A DNA stretch of 64,000 nt from Bacillota bacterium (GTDB taxonomy: Bacteria > Bacillota > Bacilli > Paenibacillales > Paenibacillaceae): the NCBI GenBank assembly GCA_023391635.1, contig JAEWAQ010000058.1, forward strand, positions 89,429 to 153,428. The letters run 5' to 3'. This document shows positions 31,927 to 56,405 of the stretch, one piece after another (the first letter of the stretch is position 1; each line of letters opens with the position of its first letter). Under the pieces are notes generated by a model that saw only the letters and a program-made list of their open reading frames with translations, was not told the origin of the DNA and made no database searches. The position numbers were made by a program, and so were the translations under genes.

Positions 31927-32014
31927 AACGGAATATCGGAAGCGGAAACGGGAATGCGGGAAAACCGGATTCGGGTTGACAGAGCTCGTAGGGTAGAGTA
32001 CGTTATAGTCATAT

Positions 32015-32025
32015 TGGTAATACCA
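32015..32025 (+). promoter_or_regulatory. FadR/GntR-type palindromic operator, copy 1 (TGGTAATACCA)
   Basis: Perfect inverted repeat followed by TACTATTATTAA. It lies 33 nt downstream of TTGACA (31976-31981) and 206 nt upstream of the YesS-like gene. Confidence 0.6.
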
Positions 32026-32220
32026 TACTATTATTAACGTCGTTAGCCGGCGGCATACGGCCAATGGATGCCATCCGCATTTCGTGGAGGTCCAATTACC
32101 CGCATGCTATAATGGGAGCAATTCAGCAGCGCCGACTCCCCAAGCATCCCTATCCGACAGCCGCTTGTCGGGCATGGTTTTGGAGAATAGTTTGGAACCG
32201 CTCTCACGGAGGGTGAACGC

Positions 32221-34446
32221 ATGAATCGTCAGACACGGGATTCGCACGGTTTGAGAAACCTATCCTATAAACGCCGCCTGACGCTCATCGTCTTGTTGCT
32301 CAGCGTCATTCCCGTGTTGGTGCTCGGCATGTTCTCCTCGACGAATGCGGCATCGATCGTGCAACAGGAAGTCGACCGCAACCATCTGATGGTCCTGCGC
32401 CAAATTCAGAATCAATTCGATCAGTTTATGAAAAGCATGGACCGCACATCCTTTCAAATTGCCAGCAACAGCATTGTCGAGAAGTCGGTCGAAATCGGCC
32501 CGATCAGCAAAGATTTGGGCTATACGTTCGGCGCGATCGACGTGATCAGAAAAACCCGCAGCACGCAGGAAATCCATTTCGACGTATCGTTGGTATACAT
32601 GCATGAAGAGCAAGTGTACTCAACACGCTACGGTTTTGTCGATTTGACCGATTTTCCTTATCGCGACCTGCTGAATTCGGTCGGCTTCCGGTTCGATTCG
32701 ACGGTCGTCGTACCGCCGGAAGCCGGTCAACGCATGCATGAACTGCTCATCGTACGCCCTGTCCCCGCCTTTTATTCGGACCGCCCGGATGGTATTCTCG
32801 TCTTCCATATAGATCCCTCTCAGCTGATTGGGATACTGGAGCAGGTCGAATTGGGCCATAACGGAAAAATTCTGATTGCGGATGAACAGGGCACGGTCGT
32901 ATTCAGCCAGAATGCGGCGGAGATCGGATCGCGGATCTCGGCAACGTCGGAACCGTTCATGATTCGGAAGCCGACGGCCGAAGCCGGTTCGGGGGGAGCC
33001 TCTGCGGAAGAAGCCGGCAAAGTATCCATGAATGGCGACGATTATCTCGTCGCTTCGGTCCGTTCATCCTTTAACGACTGGTCGTATATCGCGATTACGC
33101 CTTACAAGGAGTTGACCAAGAAGGCGGGGGGAGTGCGCCGATTCACGCTCGGCCTGGCGGGCTCGCTCGTGGGCTTGGCCGTGTTGTTGGCGCTCTTCGG
33201 TTCGAATCGGCTGTATTCCCCCATCCAGCGGATGCAGCAGAAATTGCAGGGGGAATTCCGCGAACAGCTGCCGTATCTTCGGGATTCGATTTTCCTTCAA
33301 CTGGTGAGAGGCGAGATGTCCGAGAACGAAATTCGCGACAAGACGGAACGTTACGGCTTGCTGTTGAAAGGTTCGCGTTTCTATGTATGCCTTGTGGAAA
33401 TGGACGATTTCGCCCGATTCAAGCAAAAGTACAAGGAAAACGACCGTTCCCTGATGATCTATGCCCAGCGCAAAATGTTGGAGGAATTGTGCGAGAGCGA
33501 GCTTTCCTGCGTGACGGTATCCCCGCTGCCGAACCAGGTTGCCGTGCTGATCGGCACGAAAGACGCCAGCGAGCGGGCGGATGAGACCGTGCGCCGGAAG
33601 GCGATGGAATTCCGGAGCAATATTCAGAACTACTTCCGCCTGTCGGTTACCGTGGCGCTCAGTCAGGCATGTCGGGACTACACCGGAATCAGCGAGGCGT
33701 ATCAGGAGGCGTCCGATCTGATCGGTTACCGGATGCTGCTCGGCAGCGAGCAATTGATCGGGCACGAATCCGTCAGAATGCCGCTCGGGACTTCGGGGCA
33801 TTCGCTGATCGAACTGAAGAAGCAAATTTTGGCGGCGATGGCGAAGGGGGACGATGCCGAAGCGAAGGCCATTTTGTCGGCGCTGATCGAAGCGATGCCG
33901 CAACAGATGCATAATGCCGAATCCGTGCTGGGCACGTTCGCTTATCTGATCGGGGAATTCGACCGGCTCGTGCGCGAATGGAGCGATGGCAGCGGGGAAT
34001 TGGATACGAAGGAGCTGTACAAGCAATTGCTGGCCATGTCATCGCTGGCCGAGACGGAGCGTTGGTTCGCGGAGACGGTATTTCCGCTCGTCATGAATGC
34101 GCTGCAAGACGCGAACCTGCCGAAACGAACGAAGCTGGTCCAGCAGGTGCTGCAATATATTCACTTGCATTACGACACGGACCTGAGCTTGCAGCTAGTG
34201 GCCGATACGTTCGGGATGACGCCCCCGCAGTTAAGCCGGTTGTTCCGCGAAGAGCGCAACGAGTCGTTCAGCGACTATGTCCTGCGCTGCCGGATCGAGA
34301 AAGCGAAGGAATGGCTTACCCATACCGAAATGCCGATTCGGGAAATCGCGGAACGTTTGCGCTACGCCTCCGTCCAAAATTTCACCCGGATCTTCAAACA
34401 GATGACGAACGAGCCTCCCGGTCATTACCGGAAGAAATCCCGATAA
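32221..34446 (+). CDS. YesS-like membrane-associated AraC-family regulator
   Basis: N-terminal TM (LTLIVLLLSVIPVLVLGMF), an extracytoplasmic sensor-like region and a second TM. C-terminal AraC HTH (IREIAERLRYASVQNFTRIFKQMTNEPPGHYRK). 741 aa. Confidence 0.8.
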   Translation: MNRQTRDSHGLRNLSYKRRLTLIVLLLSVIPVLVLGMFSSTNAASIVQQEVDRNHLMVLRQIQNQFDQFMKSMDRTSFQIASNSIVEKSVEIGPISKDLGYTFGAIDVIRKTRSTQEIHFDVSLVYMHEEQVYSTRYGFVDLTDFPYRDLLNSVGFRFDSTVVVPPEAGQRMHELLIVRPVPAFYSDRPDGILVFHIDPSQLIGILEQVELGHNGKILIADEQGTVVFSQNAAEIGSRISATSEPFMIRKPTAEAGSGGASAEEAGKVSMNGDDYLVASVRSSFNDWSYIAITPYKELTKKAGGVRRFTLGLAGSLVGLAVLLALFGSNRLYSPIQRMQQKLQGEFREQLPYLRDSIFLQLVRGEMSENEIRDKTERYGLLLKGSRFYVCLVEMDDFARFKQKYKENDRSLMIYAQRKMLEELCESELSCVTVSPLPNQVAVLIGTKDASERADETVRRKAMEFRSNIQNYFRLSVTVALSQACRDYTGISEAYQEASDLIGYRMLLGSEQLIGHESVRMPLGTSGHSLIELKKQILAAMAKGDDAEAKAILSALIEAMPQQMHNAESVLGTFAYLIGEFDRLVREWSDGSGELDTKELYKQLLAMSSLAETERWFAETVFPLVMNALQDANLPKRTKLVQQVLQYIHLHYDTDLSLQLVADTFGMTPPQLSRLFREERNESFSDYVLRCRIEKAKEWLTHTEMPIREIAERLRYASVQNFTRIFKQMTNEPPGHYRKKSR

Positions 34447-34489
34447 GATGCATGCCCGCTGCTTGCATTCCCCTTCGAACCATCACTTG

Positions 34490-34530
34490 AAACCCGCGTC
34501 GCTACGGCGATATCGCGGGTTTTTTCTTTT
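34490..34530 (+). terminator. rho-independent terminator after the YesS-like gene
   Basis: AAACCCGCG-(15 nt)-CGCGGGTTT followed by TTTTCTTTT. Confidence 0.8.
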
Positions 34531-34654
34531 GCGCAACGTTATTGTTCTTTATAAACGGGCGGCCTGCTCAAATGAAAATTGCGCTGTATTTCAACAAGTC
34601 TTATGCTGATGCCGTGAATCCGAAATGCGAGCCGAGATGGGAACAGGAGCCATG

Positions 34655-36019
34655 ATGGAAGAGGTGAAGCGCGCATGGTTAACCGTCGATTGCGCAGCGA
34701 GTGACATGCGTATCGTGCAGCATCATTACCGGACGCGTCGGGAACCGCTGATGACGCCGTTCGGTTTCAAAGGCAGATTTGTGCGGGAGTTATGGCAACC
34801 GCACGTACATCTTCAGGACGAGTCGGGCCGTTCGGCTGTCGGCATGGGCGTTCAAAGCCCGCTTTGGTGCGACGCGGCCATGTTCGCGCGGTTGGGCGAG
34901 ACCGAAAGCAACGACTGGATGGAACGGCTGACGCGATATGCGTTAACCGCGGCTGCGGAACTGGAATTCAAGCACCCGCTCGATCTGATGGACCAACTCG
35001 TTCCGATCGTTTACCGGCATGCGGCCGACCGGCTCGGCCATGATCGAATCAGCCGCACGTTCGTGCTAAACGCCGTGACCTGCATCGACCATGCGGCTTG
35101 GTCCCTCTATGCGCAATCCTGCGGAGAAGTTTCCTTGTTCCGTCTGGTGCCCGATCCCTGGAAAGGCGGATTGCCGCATCGGCATTCCGCGACGGCCAGC
35201 ATTCCGGTCATTCCGTACGGCATGACCGGCGGCGAGATCGCCAAGCTGCTGGAAGCCGGGTACTTCGTGCTCAAGATCAAGCTCGGCTCGGACCCCGAAG
35301 GCGACGGCGATCCCGTGAAGATGCTGGAATGGGATCAGGCCCGGCTTGCCCAGATTCACGAGCTGGCCAACCGATACGAGGCGCAGGGCCATGCGGACAA
35401 CTCCATTGTTTATTACTTGGACGCGAATGGAAGATACGACAGGAAAGAACGGTTGCTGCGGCTGCTCGAACACGCTCAATCGATCGGAGCATGGGACCGG
35501 CTTGTCTTATTCGAGGAACCGCTGCCCGAAACCAATCAGGAAGATTTGCGCGACATTCCCGTTCGGTTCGCGGCGGATGAACGCGTGCATAGCGAACAGG
35601 ATGCGCTGATCTGCCTGCAGCAGGGCTATCGGGCATTCGCCCTGAAGCCGGTCGCCAAGACGATGAGCTTCAGTCTGCAAATCGCCAGATTGGCTGCCGA
35701 GCATCAGGCCCCTTGTTTCTGCGCCGACCTGACCGCCAGCCCCGTGCTCGTCGATTGGACCAAGCTTCTCTCCGGCCATTTGGCGCCGCTGCCCGGGTTC
35801 CGCGGGGGGTTGACGGAAACGAACGGCGCCCAAAACTACAAGCGGTGGGCAGAAATGCGTTCCGAACACCCGATGAGGGGCGCTTCGTGGACCCAAGCCC
35901 GGCAAGGCTCGTTCGAACTGTCGGAGCGGTTCTATGCTTGCAGCGGAGGCGCGCTTCTGCATGGCGACGGAAGCTCGGTTACGGATAAGTCGACTTACGG
36001 GAAGGAGGGGCAGCCATGA
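34655..36019 (+). CDS. enolase-superfamily enzyme (MLE/MR-like epimerase, racemase or dehydratase)
   Basis: Barrel ligand pattern LKIKLG (KxK), YLDANGRY (Asp), LFEEPLP (Glu), FAADERV (Asp) and ALKPVAK (Lys). The start is ambiguous among 34625, 34637, 34652 and 34655; AGGAG at 34645 favours 34655. Confidence 0.65.
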   Translation: MEEVKRAWLTVDCAASDMRIVQHHYRTRREPLMTPFGFKGRFVRELWQPHVHLQDESGRSAVGMGVQSPLWCDAAMFARLGETESNDWMERLTRYALTAAAELEFKHPLDLMDQLVPIVYRHAADRLGHDRISRTFVLNAVTCIDHAAWSLYAQSCGEVSLFRLVPDPWKGGLPHRHSATASIPVIPYGMTGGEIAKLLEAGYFVLKIKLGSDPEGDGDPVKMLEWDQARLAQIHELANRYEAQGHADNSIVYYLDANGRYDRKERLLRLLEHAQSIGAWDRLVLFEEPLPETNQEDLRDIPVRFAADERVHSEQDALICLQQGYRAFALKPVAKTMSFSLQIARLAAEHQAPCFCADLTASPVLVDWTKLLSGHLAPLPGFRGGLTETNGAQNYKRWAEMRSEHPMRGASWTQARQGSFELSERFYACSGGALLHGDGSSVTDKSTYGKEGQP

Positions 36020-36945
36020 CCCGGTTGAAGTTCGGGATTGTGGACCTGGATACTTCCCATCCCGGGGAATTCGTTCCGATCATCCGATCGATGGGACATG
36101 AGGTGACCGCCGTGTACGACAGCGGCACGATATACCCGGCAGGCTATGCGGAAGCATTTGCCGGACAGCACGGGATCCGCATTGTGGCGGAAAGTCTGGA
36201 GAATATGGCCGAACATGTCGACGTGGCCCTGATCTGCGGGTGCAACTGGGACTTGCATGTAGGGCAGGCGCTGCCGTTCCTGTCCGCCGACAAAGGGATA
36301 TTGATCGATAAGCCGATGGCGGGGAACATCCGGGACTTGCTCCGAATCGCGGATTTCGCGAAAGACGGCGCCCGAATCGCGGGCGGTTCCTCCTTGCGGG
36401 TCTGCTACGAGGCGCGGGAATGGTCGGAGCTGCACGGATCGTCCGCGAGCTGGGTGTACGGGATAACCGGCTGCGGAGTGGACGAGTTCAATTACGGGAT
36501 CCATGGCTATGCGCTGCTTCACGGCCTGCTGGGCAGCGGGTTTGCAAGCGCCCGGTATTTGGGCACTTCCTTGCAGGATCAATTCGAATTGGAATGGGCC
36601 GACGGAAGACGGGGCATCGTCAGCATCGGCAAGGCCGATTCCTATCTGCCTTTCCATGCATCCGTGGTGACCGGCCGGGGCGTGCACCAGATTCAAGTGG
36701 ACAGCGGCAAGCTCTATCAAGCCTTGATCGAGCACGCGCTGCCGATCCTAAGCGGCGAATCGCCGGCGTCCATCCCGCCGGAGGCGTTGATCGCGCCCGA
36801 ACTGTCGGCTCTTGCGGCCAAGCGGTCCAAAGAGCTCGGGGGCGTACGCGTCCATGTCCGGGATATTCCGCTGGACGATCGCGGATTCGACGGCGCGGCA
36901 TTCGCCGCCGCCTATCGCAAACAAAAATCGAACAAAGAGGGTTGA
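36016..36945 (+). CDS. atypical Gfo/Idh/MocA-like protein (glycine-rich loop replaced by GIVDLDTSH)
   Basis: ATGA overlap with the enolase-family stop. N-terminus KFGIVDLDTSHPGEF and an ILIDKPMA (EKP-like) motif. 309 aa. Confidence 0.55.
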   Translation: MTRLKFGIVDLDTSHPGEFVPIIRSMGHEVTAVYDSGTIYPAGYAEAFAGQHGIRIVAESLENMAEHVDVALICGCNWDLHVGQALPFLSADKGILIDKPMAGNIRDLLRIADFAKDGARIAGGSSLRVCYEAREWSELHGSSASWVYGITGCGVDEFNYGIHGYALLHGLLGSGFASARYLGTSLQDQFELEWADGRRGIVSIGKADSYLPFHASVVTGRGVHQIQVDSGKLYQALIEHALPILSGESPASIPPEALIAPELSALAAKRSKELGGVRVHVRDIPLDDRGFDGAAFAAAYRKQKSNKEG

Positions 36946-36950
36946 GTGCA

Positions 36951-37931
36951 GTGCGTGAATTCAAAGTCGGCATAATCGGCTGCGGAATGCTCGGCAGGAC
37001 GCATGCGGCGTGCATCAAGGAACTGGAGCATATGAAACCGTACGCTTACTGCGACATCCATCTTCCGAGCGCCCAAAAACTGCTGGAGCAGTTCGGGGGC
37101 AGAATAGCGACGTCCGAAGTGGAGGAACTGCTCGCCGATCCGGACATCGACGTGCTCTATATTACGACCCAACACGATACCCATGCGGAATTGTGCATCC
37201 GGGCGCTCGGGGCCGGCAAGCATGTGTTGGTGGAAAAGCCGATGGCAATGACGGTCGAGGACTGCGTGCGGATCGGCGAAGCGGTCAAGGCGACCGGGAA
37301 GAAATTGTTCACGGCGTATAAAATGCGCTATTACGATATGCTTCTGAAAGCCAAATCGTTGATTCCCGAACCGGTGATGGTGGTTATGCAAATGATGGAC
37401 GATCGATGGGGGACGGGCACGTGGCCCAACGATCCGGTGAAGGGCGGAGGGAACGTCCTGAGCCAAGGCTGCCATTCCACGGACGTGCTGCGGTTTATCG
37501 CGGGAGGCAATCCGACGGAAGTGTATGCGGCGGGAGGAAATTATTATCAGGAGAGCGGAGTCGTCGATAATTTGACAGCCGTGTTCCGCTTCGACAACGG
37601 CGTCGCCGGTACTTTAATTCAAGGAGATTGCAGCTGTCCGCCGTTTACGAGCAAATTTTTCATGCAGATTTTCGCCGAACGCAAATCGATTACGCTATCC
37701 GACCGGTTGACCCGGCTGACCTATGCGGAAGAAGGCCGCGAGCCGGTCGTTTACGAAGGGACGGAATCCGGATTCCTGGAAGAGAACCGGGCGTTCGAAG
37801 CTTGCCTGGTCCAGGATGCTCCGCCGCCGATCGACCATATTGACGGCTTGTATTCGACCTTGATGGTGCTGCAAGCGTTTCAATCTCTCAAAACCGGCAA
37901 ACCGGAAAAAATATCTTCGATCGTGGAATAG
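36951..37931 (+). CDS. Gfo/Idh/MocA-family NAD(P)-dependent oxidoreductase
   Basis: GTG 36951 follows AGAGGG. KVGIIGCGMLGRTH Rossmann loop and the VLVEKPMA motif. The ORF-track 5' extension (36420-36950) overlaps the previous gene in another frame. Confidence 0.8.
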   Translation: MREFKVGIIGCGMLGRTHAACIKELEHMKPYAYCDIHLPSAQKLLEQFGGRIATSEVEELLADPDIDVLYITTQHDTHAELCIRALGAGKHVLVEKPMAMTVEDCVRIGEAVKATGKKLFTAYKMRYYDMLLKAKSLIPEPVMVVMQMMDDRWGTGTWPNDPVKGGGNVLSQGCHSTDVLRFIAGGNPTEVYAAGGNYYQESGVVDNLTAVFRFDNGVAGTLIQGDCSCPPFTSKFFMQIFAERKSITLSDRLTRLTYAEEGREPVVYEGTESGFLEENRAFEACLVQDAPPPIDHIDGLYSTLMVLQAFQSLKTGKPEKISSIVE

Positions 37932-37979
37932 GGGCCATGATGGCGCGTCGTCTCAGGACAGATCGATCTATGAAGGGGA

Positions 37980-40754: not shown

Positions 40755-40783
40755 TAGAAACGATGGAAGGAGGTGCAGCACGG

Positions 40784-41683: not shown

Positions 41684-41718
41684 GTTCGCGATGAGGAACG
41701 GGAAGGAGAGGGCCGTCC

Positions 41719-42597: not shown

Positions 42598-42670
42598 GTC
42601 GTATTACAATGGGAACAGGGTGCAAGGCGATTTTTGCAAGGCCAATCAACTTCAGGAGGGGATTACGTCC

Positions 42671-44308: not shown

Positions 44309-44386
44309 CATCCGCGGGTTCAGACGCAGGAACGGCATGGTCAGGCGAAGTTCGATCACATTTTCCATTTGAACGAGGTGCTGAAC

Positions 44387-47300: not shown

Positions 47301-49756
47301 ACGACGGTTACAGCGATTTTACTTCGGGATTGTATGCGGACGAAACGAAGTTGACGGATTATGCCGTGGATCTGCTTGCCGGCCAGGACGTGGAATCGAT
47401 CTATTGGTCGCTGGGCGCCACGATGATGATCATTCGCGACAGTCCGACGGCACTGAAGCCTTATGCGAACCTGACACCCGAGCAGGAAGCGCTGATGCGG
47501 TCCGATGACATTGTGGGAATGAACCTGATAAACCAGTTGATCGACAGCGGCAAAGATCCGTTGGCGCTCGTAGCCGGACGGGCGGAAGAGCTCGGGATGA
47601 ACGGATTTGCCTCCTTGCGGATGAACGCCTTCTACAATCAAGGGGAACATCCTTATTTGAACGGGGCGCGCTATGAGGAGTTTGCGAACAAGGGGTATTT
47701 GCAGCTATTGAGCGACGGCTCCCAAAGCTTCCGAATGAGCTATGCCTATCCCGAATTCCGCCAATTCATCAAGGATGTGCTGGTGGAAGCCGCCTTCGCG
47801 ACGAACGATCAGGGCCAGCAGGTCGTGTCCGGCGTGGAGCTTGACTTCAACCGCTATCCGGACCTGTTCGGCAGCGAAGCGGCGGGCCTGTCGACGGCGA
47901 CGATCCTGACCGATTTCCTGCGCGAATTGCGTACGGCATTGCCAGGCAAGCAAATCGCGGTGCGCGTTCCTTATTATCCGGTCGCGGTGATCGATTTGCC
48001 AACCTGGATCGCGGACGGTCTGATCGACATTCTCATTCCGTCCACGATTGGCCATGAAGATTTCTTCCGCAATATCGATGAGTTCGCCGACTTGGTGGAA
48101 GGGACGAATGTGAAGCTGTATGGCGGCATCATAGGGACGTTGTCCGGCCACGAAATCACCAAGATCGAGGAAGAACTGCAGAAGCGCGGCATTCCGGTTA
48201 CCTCCGGCTTCAATTACGTGAGCAAACAGCAGTATCTGCTGCGGGCGCACCAGTTCTATGAAGCCGGATACGATGGCATCTATATTTTCAATAACTGGCG
48301 CGGGACGGCGGCGAACGGCGAAGTCATTCGCGGTTTGTTGGGCGACAAGGTGAAAGTGAAGAAGTGGCATGCGTTCGCATATCCGGCCGAATGGACGCAA
48401 AACAGCGTTTACGTCGAGGGGGCGCCGCGCAGCTTGTTGTTCAATGACGATGCCGCCAGCTTGAAAGACACGAATTGGCGAGCGACGGCGCCGCAGCCGG
48501 GCGTGTACATGACCGATTTCGCGAATACGCTCGGGAACCCGCAGGGAGTGGCTCTGAAGCCGGTGCCGGAGGGCCAATACCTGATCTATGGCGACGGAAG
48601 CTCGAGCGGCAAGTGGGGTTCGATGATTCGCCCGCTGGCGATCGGTTCAGGGCCTTGGAAGATGGAATTCTCCGCGCGATTCGCCGATCTGATGACCCCG
48701 GCCAATTATTTGCCGGACCGCGGCATCCTGTTCCGGGTGAATGCGAACGGAGCGAAGTTCGTGCTGGCGTTCAACTCGTATGACCCTGCTACCGGCCAGG
48801 CCAAGGTCACTTTCCGCGGCGATCAGGCCTATCGTAATGTCGGCACTTATCCGATCCAGATGCCTGGCGATGACCAGTTGCACGCGTGGGAGATTCGTTA
48901 CGACGGGGAATCGGCCGTGTCGCTCTGGCTGGATGGGTCGAAGATCGCGGAGCATGCCGGGATGGGCTTCGCAGACCCGAATCCGGAACAGATCGAGATT
49001 GCCTCGATTCCGCTGGACAGGGTGTCCGGTACGAATGAACTGTATATCGACCACATTCGTTTCTCCAAACTGATCGCGGCGACCGGCATCGGATTGACGC
49101 CGGCGGAATTGGAACTGCAGGCAGGGGAAGATTACCGCCTGGCTGTCGCGTTTACGCCGGAGCATGCGACCGATAAGCGCGTGGTATGGACATCGGACAA
49201 TGAAGAAGTGGCGACTGTAGACGCAACGGGACGGGTCTTCGCGATTTCGCCTGGCCTGGCGCAGATCACGGCAACGGCCGTCGACGGCGGATGGACCGCG
49301 ACGAGCGCGGTGACGGTGACCGCGGTGCCCGTACCCGTCAGCATCCAACTGCATATGGATGCCGACCGGATCGCGTTCGGCCAGCAAGCGACGGTGACCG
49401 GCGCCGTCTACGATGCCGAGGGGGTTGGCTTGGCGGGCATTACGGTCCGCCTGACCGCTTCGGCCGGCACGATCGATCCTGCAGCGATCGCAACCGGCGA
49501 AGACGGGGCGTTCTCCGCCCTGTTCCTGGCGCCGAATCATGCCGGATCCATCCAAGTGACGGCTGTCGTGCCCGGCACGGATGCTGCCGGCCAGGCCACC
49601 GTGCAGGTGTGCCCTGCGGTTCAGGTGCGGAGCGGACCATCGGCGCCGCAAGAAGCGAAAGGCAATTGCCGCCGGCTTCCGATGGAAGCGAGCCTGACGG
49701 TACCCGACAAGGCGGAAGCCAGGCTGCCGGAATCCGATCCGGCTTTGCAGCCCTGA
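44387..49756 (+). CDS. 1789-aa secreted multi-module protein: four paralogous beta-sandwich (LamG/ConA-like?) modules of about 210 aa, a central non-repeat TIM-barrel-like region, a Big_2 Ig domain and a further Ig-like domain
   Basis: ATG 44387 follows GAGGTG. Signal peptide MKIGFIRKLLIAALAAGLVLPVGTMPLHA. Internal paralogous modules lie at about 44528-45150, 45150-45790, 45794-46420 and 48430-49075, and share DDAxSLxDxGW...LGNP...GQYLxYGD...GxGxWxxEFSA(R/K)...ERGxxF...NE(V/L)YxDxI. Big_2-like segment LTPAELELQAGEDYRLAVAFTPEHATDKRVVWTSDNEEVATVDATGRVFAISPGLAQITA at about 49081-49320. Confidence 0.7.
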   Translation: MKIGFIRKLLIAALAAGLVLPVGTMPLHANVADGTGAPALLGTFPALFEDDADNMQQAGWSLSQPPESGVYATDASHSLGNPNLIEMKPVDPGQYLFYGDKSASDGVRYTMMTKSVAIGDGAWTLEFSARIVDLVKPKQYPAERGILFIVYANEKRYQVSFNSMNKLYGLTNTHGTTFQDKEIEYPQDDAFHQWEITFDGLQTVSIKLDGIKVAAFTGIALPASGRNDSIVIGNLPLDWEAGTNEVYFDHFKFYKGNPDIYVQDDADSLADAGWTRFQAPIDGVYVTDSGGSLGNPNGAAMLPVPAGQYLFYGDQRASDLNKYSYISQSVPIGAGAWELGFSAKFSQLMTPARYLAERGVFFDIRANEKRYKIAFNSGNRIVAQVGSGSAVDVREVNMPGDDLFHSWKIAYDGVNAVSVSVDGVVLARFENIAGTVNAADGMYIFNAPLDWQAGANEVYFEDIRLSKSVMGNPNVLIDDDGAGFPAMNWQVDAPAANAYFTDYRKTNGSVAGMKSAAEGTYVTYAAAGSGQAMQLSKQVAIGGAPWALEFDARIQSEVMLDDAVGDPAKGLGMEIAADGKLYRFVWQDGDRLRLLKADGSYDSVQLTMPDAQQIHRWGVAYDQQQIILSLDGVKLGSWQGLGLAQAGPDRARLYNDATGAVTGATEAVIDRIRLVKNTLPEWARFAPVITSVSVLPTSSQASGIETVVSILDANPLSYQDGSLQVEASLRQDGTLIASGLQAATGPAVSVRLDAVPATGRMELTIRMLHDGNELTAYTRNIEVYPTAAVLAPGQQATAAGGAATIGAAYLYTAMADVWDETANAAFEKGTSGWETATYQYEGTAEGGVFLENVGAAHTLSLPINLNGWFGVYVGYVTGTEQIVVGDGTQEQTVTVGGGLSGSGPSYGNKAIAEAFAFASEFQDGTVTLKTAGGKQARIAYVKLKELTLEEIALYAEADESATGGGKRVVYNNDGYSDFTSGLYADETKLTDYAVDLLAGQDVESIYWSLGATMMIIRDSPTALKPYANLTPEQEALMRSDDIVGMNLINQLIDSGKDPLALVAGRAEELGMNGFASLRMNAFYNQGEHPYLNGARYEEFANKGYLQLLSDGSQSFRMSYAYPEFRQFIKDVLVEAAFATNDQGQQVVSGVELDFNRYPDLFGSEAAGLSTATILTDFLRELRTALPGKQIAVRVPYYPVAVIDLPTWIADGLIDILIPSTIGHEDFFRNIDEFADLVEGTNVKLYGGIIGTLSGHEITKIEEELQKRGIPVTSGFNYVSKQQYLLRAHQFYEAGYDGIYIFNNWRGTAANGEVIRGLLGDKVKVKKWHAFAYPAEWTQNSVYVEGAPRSLLFNDDAASLKDTNWRATAPQPGVYMTDFANTLGNPQGVALKPVPEGQYLIYGDGSSSGKWGSMIRPLAIGSGPWKMEFSARFADLMTPANYLPDRGILFRVNANGAKFVLAFNSYDPATGQAKVTFRGDQAYRNVGTYPIQMPGDDQLHAWEIRYDGESAVSLWLDGSKIAEHAGMGFADPNPEQIEIASIPLDRVSGTNELYIDHIRFSKLIAATGIGLTPAELELQAGEDYRLAVAFTPEHATDKRVVWTSDNEEVATVDATGRVFAISPGLAQITATAVDGGWTATSAVTVTAVPVPVSIQLHMDADRIAFGQQATVTGAVYDAEGVGLAGITVRLTASAGTIDPAAIATGEDGAFSALFLAPNHAGSIQVTAVVPGTDAAGQATVQVCPAVQVRSGPSAPQEAKGNCRRLPMEASLTVPDKAEARLPESDPALQP

Positions 49757-49793
49757 TCAGGCAGAAGATATAGGGAAACGATAAGAAGAGCAT

Positions 49794-49828
49794 CGGGCAG
49801 GCCCGCGATACGAGCAGGGGCCTGCCCG
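49794..49828 (+). terminator. hairpin terminator after the giant gene
   Basis: CGGGCAGGCCC-(12 nt)-GGGGCCTGCCCG. The downstream T-tract is weak. Confidence 0.55.
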
Positions 49829-49919
49829 GCTTCAGTTCCGCTTTGTTGTTCGTTGCTCGGACAGGATAAGCCCCGATTGACATCTTATGGGCGGTGGGGT
49901 ATTGTTGAATTTATATAAT

Positions 49920-49930
49920 TGGTAATACCA
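49920..49930 (+). promoter_or_regulatory. FadR/GntR-type palindromic operator, copy 2 (TGGTAATACCA)
   Basis: Immediately abuts a TATAAT hexamer (49914-49919), is followed by TAGTATGATTA, and lies 61 nt upstream of the sialidase-like ATG. Confidence 0.6.
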
Positions 49931-49980
49931 TAGTATGATTATGTTCCGTTTGACATCCATAGCTGAAAGGGAGTTCACCC

Positions 49981-51147
49981 ATGTCTGACAAGACGGCCCA
50001 ACCGATTCATATTGAAATCATCGATACAGGCCTTATTTTCCGCAACCCGCTGCCGCACGTGTACGCCCGGCATGCCTATTTTCCTTCGGTGCTTCAATTG
50101 GCGAACGGCGAGATGCTGGCATCGTTTACCGTCGGCCAAGCTTTCGAATCCGCCGACCTGCATACGGAACTGGCGCGTTCTTTCGACCAAGGCGTCACGT
50201 GGGCGCATGAAGGCCGCCTCTATCCAGGCACGCCGGATAGGGCCACTTCGGATACGTGCCGGCTGTCGCATGGCGCTGATGGAGAAGTGATCGCCTACGT
50301 CATTCGCCACGACCGTTCGCGGCCGGATTGCGGCTTCGTCAACCCGGATAATCTCGGTTTCGTCGAAACTGAGCAGTTGCTATTCCGGTCGTCTGACGGG
50401 GGGCGCACATGGAGCGATCCGCAGACGATCAATCCGCCGCTCGTCGGCCCGGCATTCGAAATGACTTCTCCGATCGTACCGTTGAAGGGCGGCACCTGGC
50501 TATTGCCGACCTGCACCTGGAGGGGATTCGACGGCTATTGCCCGAATGGCATGAAGATGGTCGCGTTCCGTTCAGAAGACCAGGGCAGGACTTGGCCGGA
50601 TTACATCGACGTCATGGCGGACGCCAGGGATATCGATATTTTCTGGGAGTCCAAGATGGTCGAACTGGCCGACGGCAGAGTGCTGGCTGCAGCCTGGGTC
50701 TATGACCGGGAAGCGGGGAAGGATCGGGACAATCACTACGCCATCACCCGCGGGGCGGGCATCGACAGCCCGTTTACGGAACCGCGGTCATGCGGGTTGA
50801 AGGGGCAAACGCTGAATATCATGGAAATTGCGCCCGGCCGGGTGTTGACCGTCTATCGCCGAACGGATGTGCCGGGCTTATGGGCCAATATTTCCCGGAT
50901 CGAAGGCGATCAATCGGTGAACGAATCGGAGCATCCGCTATGGGGCAGCGGCCGCACGGGGCTGACCGCCCATTCGGGCAACATGGCCGCGGATTTCACC
51001 GCCTTGCAGTTCGGCGCTCCATCGCTGATCCGGATGCATTCGAATGAAATATTCGTTTGTTTCTGGGCGGTCGAGGGCGGAGTCGGCAACATTCGCTGGA
51101 TCAAGCTTCGCATGACGGAATCCGGGAGTGGCCCGTCGGATGCGTAA
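49981..51147 (+). CDS. leaderless sialidase-like (GH33-type) six-bladed BNR/Asp-box propeller protein
   Basis: Three Asp-boxes (SFDQGVTW, SSDGGRTW, SEDQGRTW) and an N-terminal FRNP resembling the (F/Y)RIP arginine motif. 388 aa with no signal peptide. Confidence 0.6.
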   Translation: MSDKTAQPIHIEIIDTGLIFRNPLPHVYARHAYFPSVLQLANGEMLASFTVGQAFESADLHTELARSFDQGVTWAHEGRLYPGTPDRATSDTCRLSHGADGEVIAYVIRHDRSRPDCGFVNPDNLGFVETEQLLFRSSDGGRTWSDPQTINPPLVGPAFEMTSPIVPLKGGTWLLPTCTWRGFDGYCPNGMKMVAFRSEDQGRTWPDYIDVMADARDIDIFWESKMVELADGRVLAAAWVYDREAGKDRDNHYAITRGAGIDSPFTEPRSCGLKGQTLNIMEIAPGRVLTVYRRTDVPGLWANISRIEGDQSVNESEHPLWGSGRTGLTAHSGNMAADFTALQFGAPSLIRMHSNEIFVCFWAVEGGVGNIRWIKLRMTESGSGPSDA

Positions 51148-51204
51148 AGAGCATGACGATAGCGGATATCGTTCGAGAAGCGGCCAAGGAAGGGTGGGTC
51201 GGTC

Positions 51205-51984
51205 ATGATCATGGAACGGTTTTCCCTGCGGGGCAAGACGGCGTTCGTCACCGGAGGCGCCGGGCTATACGGAAGGCAAATCGTCAGGGCTCTGCATGAA
51301 GCGGGCGCCACCGTATATACGACTTCACGCAATCGGGAACGGCTGCGCGTGGTCGAGGAAAGCTTCCGGGAAGAGAATGTTGCGGTCCGCGCGCTGGAAA
51401 TGGACCTCGGAGACGAACGCTCCGTATTGACGGCGATCGAGCAGGCGGCCGAAGAGAGCGGGAGTTTGGATATCCTCGTCAACAATGCCGTCGAGCGCAC
51501 GATGAACGGATGGAAGGATCCGGTCGTGCATTTCGCTCGCAGCATGGAAGTTAACGCGACGGGATTGTTTGCCGTGACGCGAGCGGCGGCTGATCGGATG
51601 GCGAAACAAGGCGGCGGTTCGATCGTGAACATCGGTTCGATTCAGGGGATGGTCGGGGTCGATCTCACCTTGTATGAGGGCTTGGACTGGAGCAGCAGCC
51701 TTCCCGACTACTTCTTTCACAAGGGCGGAATGATCAATTTCACCCGCTTTGTCGCGAGTTATTACGGCATGCGGTCCGTCCGATGCAACTGCGTCAGCCC
51801 TGGCGGCCTGCGGTCCGGAGACCCGGATGAGCGGTTCGTCCGCCGCTATGAAGAGCGCACGATGCTGGGCCGGATGGCGAACGACACGGATCTGATGGGC
51901 ATTATCGTATTTTTGGCTTCGGATGCATCATCCTACATTACGGCTGCGAACATCCCCGTGGATGGCGGGTATACGGCCAAATGA
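51205..51984 (+). CDS. SDR-family oxidoreductase
   Basis: TGGAGLYG cofactor loop and an NNAV motif, with classical SDR length. ATG 51211 is an alternative start. Confidence 0.8.
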   Translation: MIMERFSLRGKTAFVTGGAGLYGRQIVRALHEAGATVYTTSRNRERLRVVEESFREENVAVRALEMDLGDERSVLTAIEQAAEESGSLDILVNNAVERTMNGWKDPVVHFARSMEVNATGLFAVTRAAADRMAKQGGGSIVNIGSIQGMVGVDLTLYEGLDWSSSLPDYFFHKGGMINFTRFVASYYGMRSVRCNCVSPGGLRSGDPDERFVRRYEERTMLGRMANDTDLMGIIVFLASDASSYITAANIPVDGGYTAK

Positions 51985-52628
51985 ATGGAGGCGAGCCCGA
52001 TTTCATGATAGGAACGATGAGAAAGCTGCTCGACGGAGAGAAGGCGCTGATCGTATGTATTGGCGATTCGATTACGGAGCAGAACCGCCATCTGCATGGC
52101 CATCTGAACTATGTCGGAATGCTGGACGAGAAGTTAACGGGGAAATATCCCCATCGCGTGTTCGTGTTCAATACCGGGATCAGCGGGAATACGGCAGGGG
52201 ACGTCGCGGAACGTCTCGAACGGGATGCCCTGCGGTTCAAGCCGGACCTGGTCGTCGTCATGCTGGGCATGAACGACAGTACCAGGGGGATGGACGGGCT
52301 CCCGGCATTTCAACGGAACTTGGAGGCGATTGCAAGCCGGATCGCGGCATCGGGCAGCGAGGTGCTCCTGATGACGCAAAATCCGCTGAATTTCGATCTG
52401 CCGGACAACGTGAGGATGCGCGGCAGTTATCCGTTATACGTCGATGCGATCAGGGAGATCGCGGCATCCCGCGAGATTCCGCTTTGCGATGTTCACCTTG
52501 CCTGGGAAGCGCATTTGTCGGAATTTCCCCATGATCGCTGGGTGTGGATGAATGATGAAATTCACCCGAATGAACACGGCCATCGGTTTATGGCGCGGGT
52601 ATTGTTGGATTATTTGAGCCATGCGTAA
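51981..52628 (+). CDS. SGNH/GDSL-family hydrolase (esterase)
   Basis: ATGA overlap with the SDR stop. Block I VCIGDSITE, block III LGMNDS and block V DEIHPN. Confidence 0.8.
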   Translation: MNGGEPDFMIGTMRKLLDGEKALIVCIGDSITEQNRHLHGHLNYVGMLDEKLTGKYPHRVFVFNTGISGNTAGDVAERLERDALRFKPDLVVVMLGMNDSTRGMDGLPAFQRNLEAIASRIAASGSEVLLMTQNPLNFDLPDNVRMRGSYPLYVDAIREIAASREIPLCDVHLAWEAHLSEFPHDRWVWMNDEIHPNEHGHRFMARVLLDYLSHA

Positions 52629-52670
52629 ACGAGACTCCCGGTCCGCTGAACGCACAAGGAGAGGAATCCG

Positions 52671-53621
52671 ATGAAGAGAACGACTCTGTCGGGCAGGTCC
52701 ATCCCGCCGATGACGCTGGGCACGGCGCAGCTGTCCATGGAATACGGCATCGCCAACCGGAGCGGCAAACCCGCCATGGATGAAAGCTTCCGCATCGTCC
52801 GCACCGCACTGGAAAGCGGGATTACGTGCTTCGATACGGCCAAGATATATGGGGATTCAGAACGGATACTGGGCGAGTTTATGGCAGCCGAGCCGGTCTT
52901 GGCGAGTGACGCCACGATCGTCACGAAAATCAAATTGAGCCCGCAGGCACCACTAGCCGGCGAGGAGCTTCGCAGACAGGTGACCGCCGAAGTGGAAGAT
53001 TGTCTGTCCAGGCTGCGGATGGCGAAGCTCCCTCTCTTGCTGCTGCATCAACCGGAAGACCTGCGGGGCCGCGGCGAGGAGATGGCCCGCATCCTTCGCG
53101 GTTTGAAGCAGGACGGCTTGATCGAGGCGGCGGGCGTATCCCTGGATTCGAATTCAGACGAACAGTATGATGTTTTCTGGCCGTTTATTCGCGACGATTT
53201 GTACGAGGCGATTCAAATCCCGATTAATTTGCTGGATCAACGGTTGATCCATAACGGAGCGCTCCGCAGCTTTGCCGATAGGGGCAAGGTGGTGTTTGCT
53301 CGCAGCGTGTTTTTGCAGGGATTGTTTTTCCTGGATGACGATCGGCTGCCTGAGCGGATCCGGGATGCGGCCCGCAAGCCTTTGAGGATGATACGGGAAT
53401 TGGCGGAGCAGGAAGGCATGAGCATCGCCCAATTGGCGGTATCCTTCGTGCGCGATATGCCGGAGATCGGCAGTCTCGTCGTTGGCGCGGAAACAGTGGA
53501 GCAAATGCGGAACAACGCCGTGCTGATGAACGGTCCGTCAATCGGAGAGCGAGCGCGATCCATCATGCTGAACGCATTCAAGAAGGTGCCGCGACAAGTA
53601 TATGTGACGACAATGTGGTGA
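52671..53621 (+). CDS. aldo/keto reductase
   Basis: LGTAQLSMEYG, FDTAKIYGDSE, and a 316-aa length typical of AKRs. AAGGAGAGG SD. Confidence 0.8.
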   Translation: MKRTTLSGRSIPPMTLGTAQLSMEYGIANRSGKPAMDESFRIVRTALESGITCFDTAKIYGDSERILGEFMAAEPVLASDATIVTKIKLSPQAPLAGEELRRQVTAEVEDCLSRLRMAKLPLLLLHQPEDLRGRGEEMARILRGLKQDGLIEAAGVSLDSNSDEQYDVFWPFIRDDLYEAIQIPINLLDQRLIHNGALRSFADRGKVVFARSVFLQGLFFLDDDRLPERIRDAARKPLRMIRELAEQEGMSIAQLAVSFVRDMPEIGSLVVGAETVEQMRNNAVLMNGPSIGERARSIMLNAFKKVPRQVYVTTMW

Positions 53622-53704
53622 TGCTTAGCCCGGAATTTATTCAAACTGCGGCCTGTTTAATCGGTTTGACATCGTTCGGACAGAGGAGTAATGTAGATTT
53701 AACA

Positions 53705-53715
53705 TGGTTTTACCA
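53705..53715 (+). promoter_or_regulatory. FadR/GntR-type palindromic operator, copy 3 (TGGTTTTACCA)
   Basis: Followed by TACTATTATTAA, identical to copy 1. It lies 33 nt downstream of TTGACA (53666-53671; TTGACA-17-TAATGT) and 90 nt upstream of the first FadR-type gene. Confidence 0.6.
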
Positions 53716-53794
53716 TACTATTATTAATTATCGAAATTCGCTTCTTAAGCTTCTTGCTTTTATATGGATTCGTTGGCGTTTGGAGGAATTCTGC

Positions 53795-54454
53795 ATGAAG
53801 GCGATTCGCAAGTCTACGCTTGTCGAGCAAGCCGGCGAGGCGATCAAGAGACATATCGAGCAGCATCGGCTGCGCCCGGGCCAGAAGCTGCCGTCCGAGA
53901 GGGAATGGGTCGAATCGCTGCAAGTGAGCCGGACCGCCGTACGCGAAGCTTTGAAATCGCTGGAACTCGTCGGCGTCGTTCGCCTGAAACCCGGAGACGG
54001 CATCTACGTCAGCGACCCAAGTTTACGGCATATTACTCGGCACGTAACCTTTCAATGGAAGACCGACAAGCGGAAGCTGAAGGAGCTTCTCGAAATCCGC
54101 AAAATATTGGAGCTTGGCGCCGTGGAGCTGGCCGTGGGCCATCGGGATTCCGAAGCCATCGGGGATATGGCGCGCTGGGTGGAGCGGATGGAGGCCAAAG
54201 TGAAAAAGCGGTTGCCGGCCGTGGAGGAAGATTTGGCTTTTCACCGCGCCTTGTTCCGGGCGACCGGCAATGAGACGATGCTGCAATTCAGCGAGATGCT
54301 GGCCGAATTTTTCCCGGAGTCGCATGAGGAGCCTTGCACCGAGACGACGCTGAACGAGCATCGGGAAATTTACGATCGATTGAAGCAAGGCGACGCGCCG
54401 GGAGCGAGACGGGTATTGGAGGCGCACCTCGATTCGCTGAAGACGACCTTATAG
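53795..54454 (+). CDS. GntR-family regulator, FadR subfamily (wHTH + FCD)
   Basis: ATG 53795 follows TGGAGGA. LPSEREWVESLQVSRTAVREALKSLELVGVVRLKPGDGIYV and an all-helical FCD-like C-terminal domain. Confidence 0.85.
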   Translation: MKAIRKSTLVEQAGEAIKRHIEQHRLRPGQKLPSEREWVESLQVSRTAVREALKSLELVGVVRLKPGDGIYVSDPSLRHITRHVTFQWKTDKRKLKELLEIRKILELGAVELAVGHRDSEAIGDMARWVERMEAKVKKRLPAVEEDLAFHRALFRATGNETMLQFSEMLAEFFPESHEEPCTETTLNEHREIYDRLKQGDAPGARRVLEAHLDSLKTTL

Positions 54455-54467
54455 AAAGGAAACGAGC

Positions 54468-55166
54468 ATGATGCTAGCGGAACACAACCTGGATCGTAAA
54501 ATGTTAAGTCAAATCGCCAGCGACCAATTGAAACAATTTATCGCTGACAACCGGTTGAAGCCCGGAGACCAGCTGCCGACGGAACGGGAGCTTGCCGAAC
54601 GGATGCAAGTCAGTCGGCCGGTCGTCCGCGAGGCGCTGAACCGGTTGGAGACACTGCAGTTGATCGTCAAAGTTCAGGGTAAAGGCATCTTCGTGGCCGA
54701 GCAAAATTTGCATACGTTCTTCGAACAGATCGTGACCTTCTGGGATTCGGCGGATATGGGGATGGAGAAACTGCTTGCTTTCCGGCTCATGCTAGAGCAA
54801 GCGGCCATGGAGGAAATCGCCGAACAAGCCGTGCCCGAAGATTACGGCAGGCTGGAAGCCATGGTGAAGGCTTCGGCCGAGCCCGCGATTGACGAAGGGA
54901 CGTTCGTGCGAATGGATGCCGACTTCCACGCCGAGTTGATCCGCTTGACCGGCAACGAGCTGTTCCACCAGCTGTCGTCCACCGTTGCGCGTTATTTCGC
55001 CATGCTGCAGCTCCGGCTGCCGTCGGAAGAAGCGAAATCCGGAGCCGACCGGGCCAGGACGATCGCCGATCATCGCAAGCTCATCGGCTTGCTGTCCGCC
55101 AAGCAGGTGAAGGATGCCAAGCAGTTATTGAAGGAGCATCTGCTGGACACGGGAACGCTCACCTGA
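54468..55166 (+). CDS. GntR-family regulator, FadR subfamily (second tandem paralogue)
   Basis: LPTERELAERMQVSRPVVREALNRLETLQLIVKVQGKGIFV and an FCD-like C-terminal domain. Confidence 0.85.
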   Translation: MMLAEHNLDRKMLSQIASDQLKQFIADNRLKPGDQLPTERELAERMQVSRPVVREALNRLETLQLIVKVQGKGIFVAEQNLHTFFEQIVTFWDSADMGMEKLLAFRLMLEQAAMEEIAEQAVPEDYGRLEAMVKASAEPAIDEGTFVRMDADFHAELIRLTGNELFHQLSSTVARYFAMLQLRLPSEEAKSGADRARTIADHRKLIGLLSAKQVKDAKQLLKEHLLDTGTLT

Positions 55167-55178
55167 ATGCCAGATAGC

Positions 55179-55198
55179 GACGAAACGGATGTTTCGTC
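55179..55198 (+). terminator. hairpin after the second FadR-type gene (GACGAAAC-GGAT-GTTTCGTC)
   Basis: 8-bp perfect stem and 4-nt loop, followed by an AT-rich stretch but only a weak U-tract. Confidence 0.45.
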
Positions 55199-55206
55199 AT
55201 TAAAAT

Positions 55207-55217
55207 TGGTATTACCA
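55207..55217 (+). promoter_or_regulatory. FadR/GntR-type palindromic operator, copy 4 (TGGTATTACCA)
   Basis: Followed by TACTATGTATTG. It lies 60 nt upstream of the ThrC-like gene. Confidence 0.6.
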
Positions 55218-56388: not shown

Positions 56389-56405
56389 GAGAGGGGGCAT
56401 GGGCC

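Follow-up and report, generated by a model that had tools for sequence, protein, structure and literature searches.

This locus raises the question of whether a short palindrome, found in front of several catabolic genes with two FadR-type regulator genes among them, marks the operators of a single regulon, and, if so, which regulator would act there and how far its reach would extend. Within the window, the whole stretch of 64 kb that was analysed, TGGTWWTACCA occurs four times (32015-32025, 49920-49930, 53705-53715, and 55207-55217), always in intergenic DNA and on the plus strand; shuffled sequences gave a mean of 0.04 copies per 64 kb, and none of 100 shuffles reached four. No further copy was found on either strand of the window, and the relaxed motif TGGTNNNACCA recovered the same four sites and nothing else. 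Directly after ACCA, on the plus strand, each copy continues into a TA[CG]TAT tail, in agreement with the preliminary description, which had reported four palindromes with a common tail. One-mismatch variants of TGGTNNNACCA showed no excess (13 in the window, 13.3 expected). A near-site immediately ahead of the DHDPS gene, at 59254 (TGGGATAACCA), was left uncounted; it scored only 10 bits with the matrix from relatives described below. The sites, and the promoter-like elements that precede three of them, are as follows.

32015 to 32031, plus strand: site 1, candidate operator, TGGTAATACCA core and TACTAT tail, 206 nt upstream of the YesS-like gene
49920 to 49936, plus strand: site 2, candidate operator, TGGTAATACCA core and TAGTAT tail, 61 nt upstream of the BNR_2 operon
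53705 to 53721, plus strand: site 3, candidate operator, TGGTTTTACCA core and TACTAT tail, 90 nt upstream of GntR1
55207 to 55223, plus strand: site 4, candidate operator, TGGTATTACCA core and TACTAT tail, 41 nt past the stop codon of GntR2 and 60 nt upstream of the ThrC-like operon
31976 to 32004, plus strand: promoter-like TTGACA-17 nt-TACGTT before site 1, read from the sequence
49877 to 49905: promoter-like TTGACA-17-TATTGT before site 2
53666 to 53671 and 53689 to 53694: promoter-like TTGACA and TAATGT, 17 nt apart, before site 3

The preliminary description had given the same four site-to-start distances, and its other details of the sites were also reproduced: copies 1 and 3 share the 16-mer ACCATACTATTATTAA, each is preceded at 33 nt by a perfect TTGACA (31976-31981 and 53666-53671), and copy 2 abuts a TATAAT (49914-49919). 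The site 1 palindrome lies about 10 nt past its predicted -10 hexamer, and site 3, upstream of GntR1, occupies what would be an autoregulatory position. The motif had been described in four of five long intergenic gaps; that proportion holds for gaps of at least 100 nt counted between 32 and 56 kb. It was found in none of about seven comparable gaps in the first 32 kb, and nowhere in the 60 kb of coding DNA in the window.

The genes around the sites carry the domains that had been assigned to them (AraC/dCache, BNR_2, two GntR plus FCD proteins, and a ThrC-like PALP enzyme), and the two FadR-type regulators are encoded, as had been noted, amid the sites, between sites 3 and 4.

32221 to 34446, plus strand: YesS-like AraC-family regulator (dCache_1, GGDEF_2, HTH_18), downstream of site 1
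34625 to 49756, plus strand: enolase-to-giant-protein operon of about 15 kb, without a site
49981 to 53621, plus strand: site 2 operon, encoding BNR_2 (sialidase-like), SDR, GDSL/SGNH hydrolase, and aldo-keto reductase
53795 to 54454, plus strand: GntR1, FadR subfamily (GntR wHTH and FCD), candidate repressor
54468 to 55166, plus strand: GntR2, second FadR-subfamily regulator, in tandem with GntR1
55267 to 60157, plus strand: site 4 operon, encoding a ThrC-like PLP enzyme, GFO/IDH/MocA oxidoreductase, MBL-fold hydrolase, AstE/DoeB-like deacylase, and DHDPS-family lyase

GntR1 and GntR2 belong to the FadR subfamily of GntR regulators. Matches to PF00392 (GntR) and PF07729 (FCD) exceed the gathering cutoffs in both proteins, with E values of 6.6e-18 and 8.7e-21 for GntR1, whose start at 53795 is backed by translation, and of 4.2e-21 and 8e-18 for GntR2. 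The two are 31% identical, and their genes are probably cotranscribed, given an intergenic gap of 13 nt. The gene caller places the GntR2 start one codon later than the start used here. The operon without a site has genes for an enolase-superfamily protein, a pair of GFO/IDH/MocA oxidoreductases, an FG-GAP protein, two ABC permeases, a solute-binding protein, and a Big_2 surface protein of 1,795 residues. The DHDPS-family lyase of the site 4 operon scored 63.9 bits against the NanA profile (cutoff, 281), and no homologs of NanE or NanK were found among the scanned genes.

For comparison we used 35 loci with GntR1 homologs of 37 to 50% identity from the searched GTDB representative genomes, in the genera Paenibacillus, Cohnella, Bacillus, Rossellomorea, Lederbergia, and Neobacillus. 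In these loci about 73 kb of intergenic DNA contain 88 matches to TGGTNNNACCA and 618 kb of ORFs contain 26, an approximately 30-fold higher intergenic density; 45 loci with more distant homologs gave 3 intergenic matches and 12 within ORFs. The GntR1 homolog family co-occurs with the motif, and motif and tail recur together at equivalent promoters beside GntR1 homologs in about 30 genomes. A site lies within 400 nt upstream of the GntR1 homolog in 25 of the 35 loci and just past the regulator gene in 21. Among the 17 relatives with a PALP (ThrC-like) homolog, 16 have a site after the regulator and ahead of the PALP operon; the gene order of the site 4 operon is kept beside GntR1 homologs in 17 genomes. 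Sites also precede transporter, AKR, and BNR genes in relatives (the latter in loci L016, L018, and L023), and homologs of the SDR and AKR form part of a conserved cluster. Three of the four predicted targets have conserved counterparts, namely, the autoregulatory site, the ThrC-like operon, and the sialidase-like/SDR/AKR genes. Autoregulation would not be universal, since the closest relatives, L002 and L003, have no site upstream of GntR1.

A position weight matrix, as the preliminary description had suggested, was built from the relatives alone and ranked the four sites of the window first, at 24.7 to 28.3 bits (site 1, 28.3; site 2, 25.4), compared with 10.1 bits for the next unrelated match. 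Scored on their flanks alone, the four fell within the top 0.06% of positions, and the plus orientation always scored better at these sites. The tail is more conserved on the gene-proximal side (27 versus 10; P = 0.008, an approximate value because the related loci are phylogenetically nonindependent), and its best-conserved base is the T at the fourth position. Half-sites are mostly TGGTC-N-GACCA or mixed in the relatives, whereas the window has TGGTA-N-TACCA, which indicates that specificity has drifted and is not simply transferable from the relatives.

We consider it very likely that a FadR-subfamily (NanR/PdhR-like) GntR repressor encoded at this locus uses the four sites as operators and controls a local regulon. 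GntR1 is the best candidate for binding them, perhaps jointly with GntR2, its tandem paralog; because two paralogous regulators are present, the motif is assigned to GntR1 only as the more parsimonious choice. For binding, repression, and effector we infer the following scheme. A repressor dimer would bind the inverted repeat TGGT-N3-ACCA and make additional A/T-rich contacts, with the stronger ones on the side nearer the gene (TAnTAT). At sites 1 to 3 the operator starts 10 to 15 nt past the -10 hexamer of a predicted TTGACA-17-TAnnnT promoter, so that the repressor, once bound, would lie over the start of transcription and the earliest transcribed bases and block initiation or promoter escape. 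TTGACA-like hexamers in the relatives cluster 34 to 50 nt upstream of the palindrome (24 of 52 sites), which likewise would put the operator at or just after the predicted transcription start, where repressor operators are expected. Site 4, upstream of which no TTGACA was found, lies between the regulator genes and the catabolic operon and may instead act there as a roadblock. Release of the repressor would be triggered by a small acidic intermediate of the pathway that binds the FCD domain. The genes induced would be those of the regulators, the ThrC-like/GFO/MBL/AstE/DHDPS operon, and the sialidase-like/SDR/esterase/AKR operon; in this lineage alone they would also include the YesS-like activator gene.

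Other explanations of the motif fare less well. The copies might be chance matches or belong to a dispersed repeat unrelated to regulation; sites 1 and 3 are about 60% identical across some 70 nt, a similarity that could point to a duplicated segment. However, the sequence common to all four copies is only 11 to 17 nt long, an Rfam scan of the window gave no match, and the shuffling result, the absence from coding DNA and the other long gaps, and the retention of the motif at equivalent promoters across six genera leave this explanation effectively refuted. The motif might also be mainly a promoter element, with TAnTAT as the -10 hexamer and the palindrome in the spacer, which the repressor would occupy instead of the start site. 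The tail is indeed oriented with the downstream gene and agrees with TATAAT at positions 1, 2, 5, and 6, and a consensus scan gives TAGTCA-17-TATTAT across site 1 and TTTATA-18-TATGAT across site 2. Almost no TTGACA-like hexamers occur at the required -12, however, their cluster lying at -34 to -50, and on this ground the tail was rejected as a -10 hexamer in the main reading; moreover, the T at the fourth tail position is not a conserved -10 feature, and in several relatives the tail abuts or overlaps a ribosome-binding site (e.g., at 11868 in L008). We regard a mainly promoter-based role as improbable. Somewhat less remote, though still unlikely, is the idea that GntR2 recognizes TGGTA-N-TACCA, alone or as the specificity-determining partner, while GntR1 binds elsewhere or coregulates. 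The A-type half-sites of the window, as opposed to the C-type half-sites that dominate beside GntR1 homologs lacking a GntR2 ortholog, favor this idea, as does the higher frequency of TGGTA-N-TACCA in tandem-GntR loci (L026 to L029, L033, and L034). FadR-type genes come in twos in nearly all related loci, and GntR2 orthologs (51% identity) are found only in L002 and L003 among them. These two loci, however, have TGGTCAGACCA or TGGTCATACCA before PALP, the pre-PALP site is kept in 14 genomes without a GntR2 ortholog, and the SRTA-RE string in the recognition helix of GntR1 is shared with a GlcC for which TGGTATTACCA is among the listed sites.

If operator binding by a local GntR repressor is accepted, there remains the matter of the YesS-like gene. 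The preliminary description had proposed a cascade in which the repressor acts at site 1 on the gene of the YesS-like AraC activator and this activator in turn switches on the enolase-to-giant-protein operon, which would then be an indirect member of the regulon. We find this possible but unproven for this lineage, and on balance rather doubtful. Site 1 is the best-scoring site of the window and shares the layout of the putative autoregulatory site 3: each has a TTGACA 33 nt upstream, and both contain the identical 16-mer. The YesS-like gene is monocistronic, with a terminator-like hairpin after it, and the gap ahead of the next operon (34447-34624) contains no site, as had been stated. At the equivalent position in relatives, past M81 peptidase and GFO genes, GntR sites precede an ABC transporter operon; they stand directly ahead of it, with no AraC-type intermediary. 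On the other hand, the regions upstream of YesS-like orthologs of 85, 74, and 44% identity contain no match to TGGTNNNACCA even when one mismatch is tolerated, and these orthologs sit in unrelated genomic contexts. The leader of the YesS-like gene, whose predicted fold was no better than that of shuffled sequence (z = 0.3), aligns with that of the 85% identical ortholog from Paenibacillus sp. MY03 over only the last ∼40 nt. Because the MY03 ortholog lacks the site, the link between site 1 and the YesS-like gene would be lineage specific. Between site 1 and the gene, a strong extended -10 element, TGCTATAAT (32105-32113), is a possible promoter that could drive transcription independently of the operator, and activation of the adjacent operon by the YesS-like protein is an assumption from gene adjacency. 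Of the original proposal of a FadR-type regulon, then, the local regulon has strong in silico support, but the YesS-like link and the cascade are not conserved.

A FadR-type repressor acting on TGGT-N3-ACCA at promoters of neighboring catabolic genes is a textbook principle, and the predicted regulon is well supported but ordinary and local. A literature search for a characterized Paenibacillus regulon of this type found nothing relevant. A bolder interpretation, which we think unlikely, is that the sites define the regulon of an undescribed catabolic pathway of Paenibacillaceae and some Bacillaceae, governed by a NanR-like paralog pair through an asymmetric 17-nt operator, with a YesS-type module captured in this genome. 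The sialidase-like BNR protein, NanA-like lyase, ThrC-like PLP enzyme, GFO oxidoreductase, MBL hydrolase, and AstE-like deacylase would be its enzymes, and an unusual acidic amino sugar or ulosonic acid is a conceivable substrate; mixed TGGTC/TGGTA half-sites hint at two specificities or a heterodimer. If true, the regulon would have been rewired here to capture an AraC/YesS activator together with a surface-protein and transporter module. The analysis provides a cross-validated candidate-operator model for uncharacterized FadR/NanR-like regulators of Paenibacillaceae and Bacillaceae, groups about 15 genes without an assigned pathway role as one predicted coregulated set, and offers a practical handle on the substrate and effector of the pathway. 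It also illustrates how a self-contained activator/transporter/surface-protein module may be put under an existing repressor by insertion behind an operator, the site 1 link being a prediction.

Operators of the FadR subfamily, compiled for PdhR, LldR, GlcC, FadR, DgoR, and ExuR by Suvorova et al. (2015; PMC4494728), are A/T-rich palindromes of TKGT/ACMA boxes with 3 nt, sometimes 2, between GT and AC. The motif described here, TGGT-N3-ACCA with A/T flanks and with a promoter placement conserved in relatives, has these features, in line with the T-GT-N-AC-A geometry originally recognized; the 11-mers TGGTATTACCA, TGGTCATACCA, and TGGTCAGACCA are themselves among the listed sites of FadR and GlcC regulators (PMC4494728). 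As in other members of the subfamily, the regulators combine a GntR wHTH with FCD and are encoded beside their predicted targets, an arrangement often accompanied by autoregulation. Unlike those operators, the group found here has an oriented, conserved TAnTAT on the gene-proximal side, an extension that would make the operator functionally asymmetric, and the system differs further in its uncharacterized catabolic cluster and in having two paralogous regulators in nearly all loci. Compared by description with the YesS-type regulators of Bacillus subtilis, the YesS-like protein is similar in its length of ∼740 residues, N-terminal dCache sensor, and C-terminal AraC HTH, and its gene similarly lies directly upstream of a permease/solute-binding-protein operon; it differs in standing behind a GntR-type operator, a link absent from its orthologs. 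Escherichia coli NanR is the repressor of sialic acid catabolism and controls genes of the nanA/nanE/nanK type. NanR (PDB 6on4, 6wfq, and 6wg7) is the best NCBIfam and PDB sequence match of both regulators, 6on4 and PdhR 9jpj being the solved structures nearest to GntR1, although at 121.5 and 115 bits the two fall far below the NanR cutoff of 260 (NF003011). The half-site TGGTAWT is similar to TGGTATAW, the repeat unit of NanR, but NanR binds direct repeats of (T)GGTATA(W) (PMC4494728), whereas the sites here are single inverted repeats. The sialidase-like BNR protein, SGNH esterase, and DHDPS-family NanA-like lyase recall the NanR regulon; in contrast, the ThrC-like, MBL, and AstE-like enzymes point to another substrate.

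A scan of both strands of the window found the palindrome TGGTWWTACCA at 32015, 49920, 53705, and 55207 (sites 1 to 4) and nowhere else, with the flanks quoted in the preliminary description. In 100 dinucleotide-preserving shuffles the motif had a mean count of 0.04, and none reached the observed four. Relaxing the center to TGGTNNNACCA added no sites in the window, where one-mismatch variants occurred at chance frequency, without excess. All four palindromes are followed directly, on the + strand, by TA[CG]TAT, here called the tail. Of the five gaps of at least 100 nt between 32 and 56 kb, four carry the motif, and the roughly seven gaps of similar size in the first 32 kb all lack it, so it is no general promoter element of the source genome. 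Several details reported previously were reproduced: the distances of sites 1 to 4 from the next start codon (206, 61, 90, and 60 nt), a perfect TTGACA that precedes sites 1 and 3 by 33 nt, a 16-mer common to those two sites, and a TATAAT abutting site 2. The window sequence has a match in a 161-kb metagenome contig (ENA ERZ27268945). Annotation with Pfam and NCBIfam placed all relevant genes of the island on the + strand, as follows.

30041 to 31926, + strand: RidA-like protein and M81 peptidase (Pfam/NCBIfam)
32015, + strand: site 1 (motif)
32221 to 34446, + strand: AraC-family "YesS-like" regulator with dCache and GGDEF_2 domains, followed by a terminator-like hairpin
34625 to 49756, + strand: enolase-superfamily protein, two GFO/IDH/MocA oxidoreductases, FG-GAP protein, two ABC permeases, solute-binding protein, and 1795-aa Big_2 protein
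49920, + strand: site 2 (motif)
49981 to 53621, + strand: BNR_2 (sialidase-like) protein, SDR, GDSL/SGNH hydrolase, and aldo-keto reductase (AKR)
53705, + strand: site 3 (motif)
53795 to 54454, + strand: GntR1 (GntR and FCD domains)
54468 to 55166, + strand: GntR2 (GntR and FCD domains)
55207, + strand: site 4 (motif)
55267 to 60157, + strand: ThrC-like PLP enzyme, GFO/IDH/MocA oxidoreductase, MBL-fold hydrolase, AstE/DoeB-like deacylase, and DHDPS-family lyase

A one-mismatch copy, TGGGATAACCA, at 59254 to 59264 ends at the start codon of the DHDPS-family gene; because it lacks the tail and scores only ∼10 bits with the matrix described below, it is probably a chance match. The − strand carries a gene for a full-length threonine synthase (Thr_synth_N, PALP, and THR4_C domains) at 28444 to 29856, 26 kb upstream, so the ThrC-like gene of the regulon (55267 to 56388, + strand), a shorter paralog, is unlikely to be a housekeeping threonine synthase. 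The gene at 60241 to 61323, 84 nt 3′ of the DHDPS-family gene, encodes an RlmN-type radical-SAM rRNA/tRNA methyltransferase (382.7 bits against a 290-bit cutoff; Cfr models match more weakly, below their cutoff) and probably has no part in the regulon.

GntR1 was aligned with 20 homologs, and the alignment served to fetch 80 loci from representative genomes. Homologs of 37 to 50% identity define 35 of these (L002 to L035 and L038), from Paenibacillus, Cohnella, Bacillus, Rossellomorea, Lederbergia, and Neobacillus. The intergenic DNA of the 35 loci (∼73 kb) holds 88 copies of TGGTNNNACCA and their ORFs (618 kb) hold 26, a density ∼30-fold higher outside ORFs; several of the 26 are artifacts of over-extended ORF starts. 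The 45 loci with more distant homologs contain 3 intergenic copies versus 12 in ORFs. In 25 of the 35 loci a site is found no more than 400 nt 5′ of the regulator gene, and in 21 there is one just 3′ of its stop codon. An exact site separates the regulator from the operon of the ThrC-like enzyme in 16 of the 17 loci with a homolog of that enzyme, and the 17th (L017) has a one-mismatch site with the same tail at this position. The transporter operon in relatives is likewise preceded by sites, usually a tandem pair, as are the AKR-GFO genes and, in three loci (L016, L018, and L023), large BNR proteins. In the Bacillaceae loci examined (e.g., L026), sites lie between a tandem GntR pair and a divergent DHDPS-BNR-ABC cluster. 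A 24-nt matrix built from 47 gene-oriented sites of the relatives only was then used to scan the window. Sites 1 to 4 were its top four matches (24.7 to 28.3 bits, all in + orientation), and the next unrelated match scored 10.1 bits; even with TGGT and ACCA ignored, the flanks of the four sites ranked in the top 0.06% of positions.

A tblastn search with the window proteins found a cluster kept beside the regulator: the ThrC-like PLP enzyme, GFO/IDH/MocA oxidoreductase, MBL hydrolase, AstE/DoeB-like deacylase, sometimes the DHDPS-family lyase, then SDR and AKR, plus the M81 peptidase and an ABC transporter. The set recurs in at least 17 Paenibacillus and Cohnella genomes (L002 to L030), often with a sialidase-like BNR protein. 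It appears to encode an uncharacterised catabolic pathway (55267 to 60157 and 49981 to 53621 in the window), whose substrate is possibly an acidic amino sugar or ulosonic acid.

On the gene-proximal side, the alignment of oriented sites shows the pattern T(+11) A(+12) n T(+14) A(+15) T(+16), with 0.6 to 0.95 bits per conserved position, and the distal flank mirrors this pattern only weakly. The proximal flank is the better conserved in 27 sites and the distal in 10 (p = 0.008, approximate because related loci are not independent), and the tail, previously described as ACTAT, is therefore a real, oriented feature of the operator family. It is probably not a −10 hexamer, since TTGACA-like hexamers, rare at −12, cluster 34 to 50 nt 5′ of the palindrome (24 of 52 sites), its best-conserved base is not a conserved −10 position, and in some relatives it touches the ribosome-binding site. 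Promoter-like pairs precede site 1 (TTGACA-17-TACGTT), site 2 (TTGACA-17-TATTGT), and site 3 (TTGACA-17-TAATGT), with the palindrome starting 10 to 15 nt after the candidate −10 hexamer. These palindromes are predicted to straddle the likely transcription start, the classical position for a repressor. Site 4 lies 41 nt after the GntR2 stop codon with no −35 hexamer visible upstream, and may act as a roadblock inside a longer transcript or belong to a weak promoter of its own. Between that stop codon and site 4 is an 8-bp hairpin, GACGAAAC-GGAT-GTTTCGTC (55179 to 55198); lacking a T-run, it might stabilize the RNA or act as a weak terminator. By analogy with known FCD-domain behavior, a small acidic effector would free the repressor.

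GntR1 and GntR2 are 31% identical, and the nearest GntR1 homologs (43 to 50% identical) are from Paenibacillus and Cohnella. A second FadR-type gene, divergent or tandem, is found in nearly all related loci. The site before the ThrC-like gene is kept in 14 genomes that have a GntR1 homolog and no GntR2 ortholog, which makes GntR1 the more parsimonious candidate to bind the four sites. The two closest relatives (L002 and L003), with both orthologs, carry C-type half-sites and no site upstream of GntR1; the window sites are of A/T type. Both half-site flavors, TGGTC and TGGTA, occur in L005 to L035, the commonest class being mixed, e.g., TGGTCATACCA. Counts of the half-site combinations were C.T, 12; A.T, 10; C.G, 8; A.G, 7; and C.A, 6. 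Such variation might stem from two specificities or from a regulator that reads the central bases loosely.

The preliminary description also proposed a cascade from a FadR-type repressor through the YesS-like regulator to the enolase-to-giant-protein operon. With site 1 upstream, the YesS-like gene could plausibly be under repressor control, but only in this lineage, since its orthologs lack such a site and the gene may have arrived with a module. In Paenibacillus sp. MY03 (MXQD01000046.1), the 85% identical ortholog precedes the same genes for the FG-GAP protein, permeases, solute-binding protein, and giant protein (∼1,790-aa Big_2), the enolase and two GFO genes are missing, and the context is unrelated to that of the window. 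No GntR-type site, with one mismatch allowed, lies upstream of this ortholog or of those of 74% and 44% identity, also in unrelated contexts. The MY03 arrangement suggests that the corresponding genes at 32221 to 49756 are a portable module that entered the GntR island. Next to the M81-peptidase region, on its far side, relatives have GntR sites immediately 5′ of a transporter operon; the simplest history would be insertion of the module behind a pre-existing operator or gain of a copy of the site 3 promoter-operator. The window and MY03 leaders of the YesS-like gene align only over the last ∼40 nt. Between site 1 and the gene is an extended −10-like TGCTATAAT (32105 to 32113), and 40 nt past it in the 206-nt leader is a terminator-like hairpin (32153 to 32172) followed by GGTTTTGG; the leader as a whole folds no better than shuffled sequence. 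Gene adjacency suggests a possible second step of the cascade, from the YesS-like regulator to the structural operon.

No Rfam family matched anywhere in the window, and we found no description of this regulon in the literature. The spacing of 3 nt between GT and AC in the palindrome differs from the 4 nt of HutC-type sites. The FadR-subfamily consensus is palindromic and A/T-rich, is built on TKGT/ACMA boxes, and typically keeps GT and AC 3 nt apart, and the 11-mers TGGTATTACCA, TGGTCATACCA, and TGGTCAGACCA have dozens of entries in the FadR and GlcC site tables (Suvorova et al. 2015, PMC4494728); TGGT-N3-ACCA fits that consensus exactly. By protein and DNA criteria, this is a FadR-subfamily regulator with predicted operators. 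The proposed local regulon, an ordinary kind and a modest finding, is well supported in silico by the consensus fit, the GntR-FCD regulators, and the sites kept at promoters of relatives; the oriented tail, the paired regulators, and the uncharacterised pathway merit follow-up. Unlike NanR, the window operators have no direct-repeat layout, and GntR1 and GntR2 fall far below the NanR score cutoff. That subfamily is nevertheless their best NCBIfam match, the nearest solved structures are E. coli NanR and PdhR, and the system resembles NanR in sequence neighborhood and partly in gene content (BNR protein, SGNH esterase, and DHDPS-family lyase).
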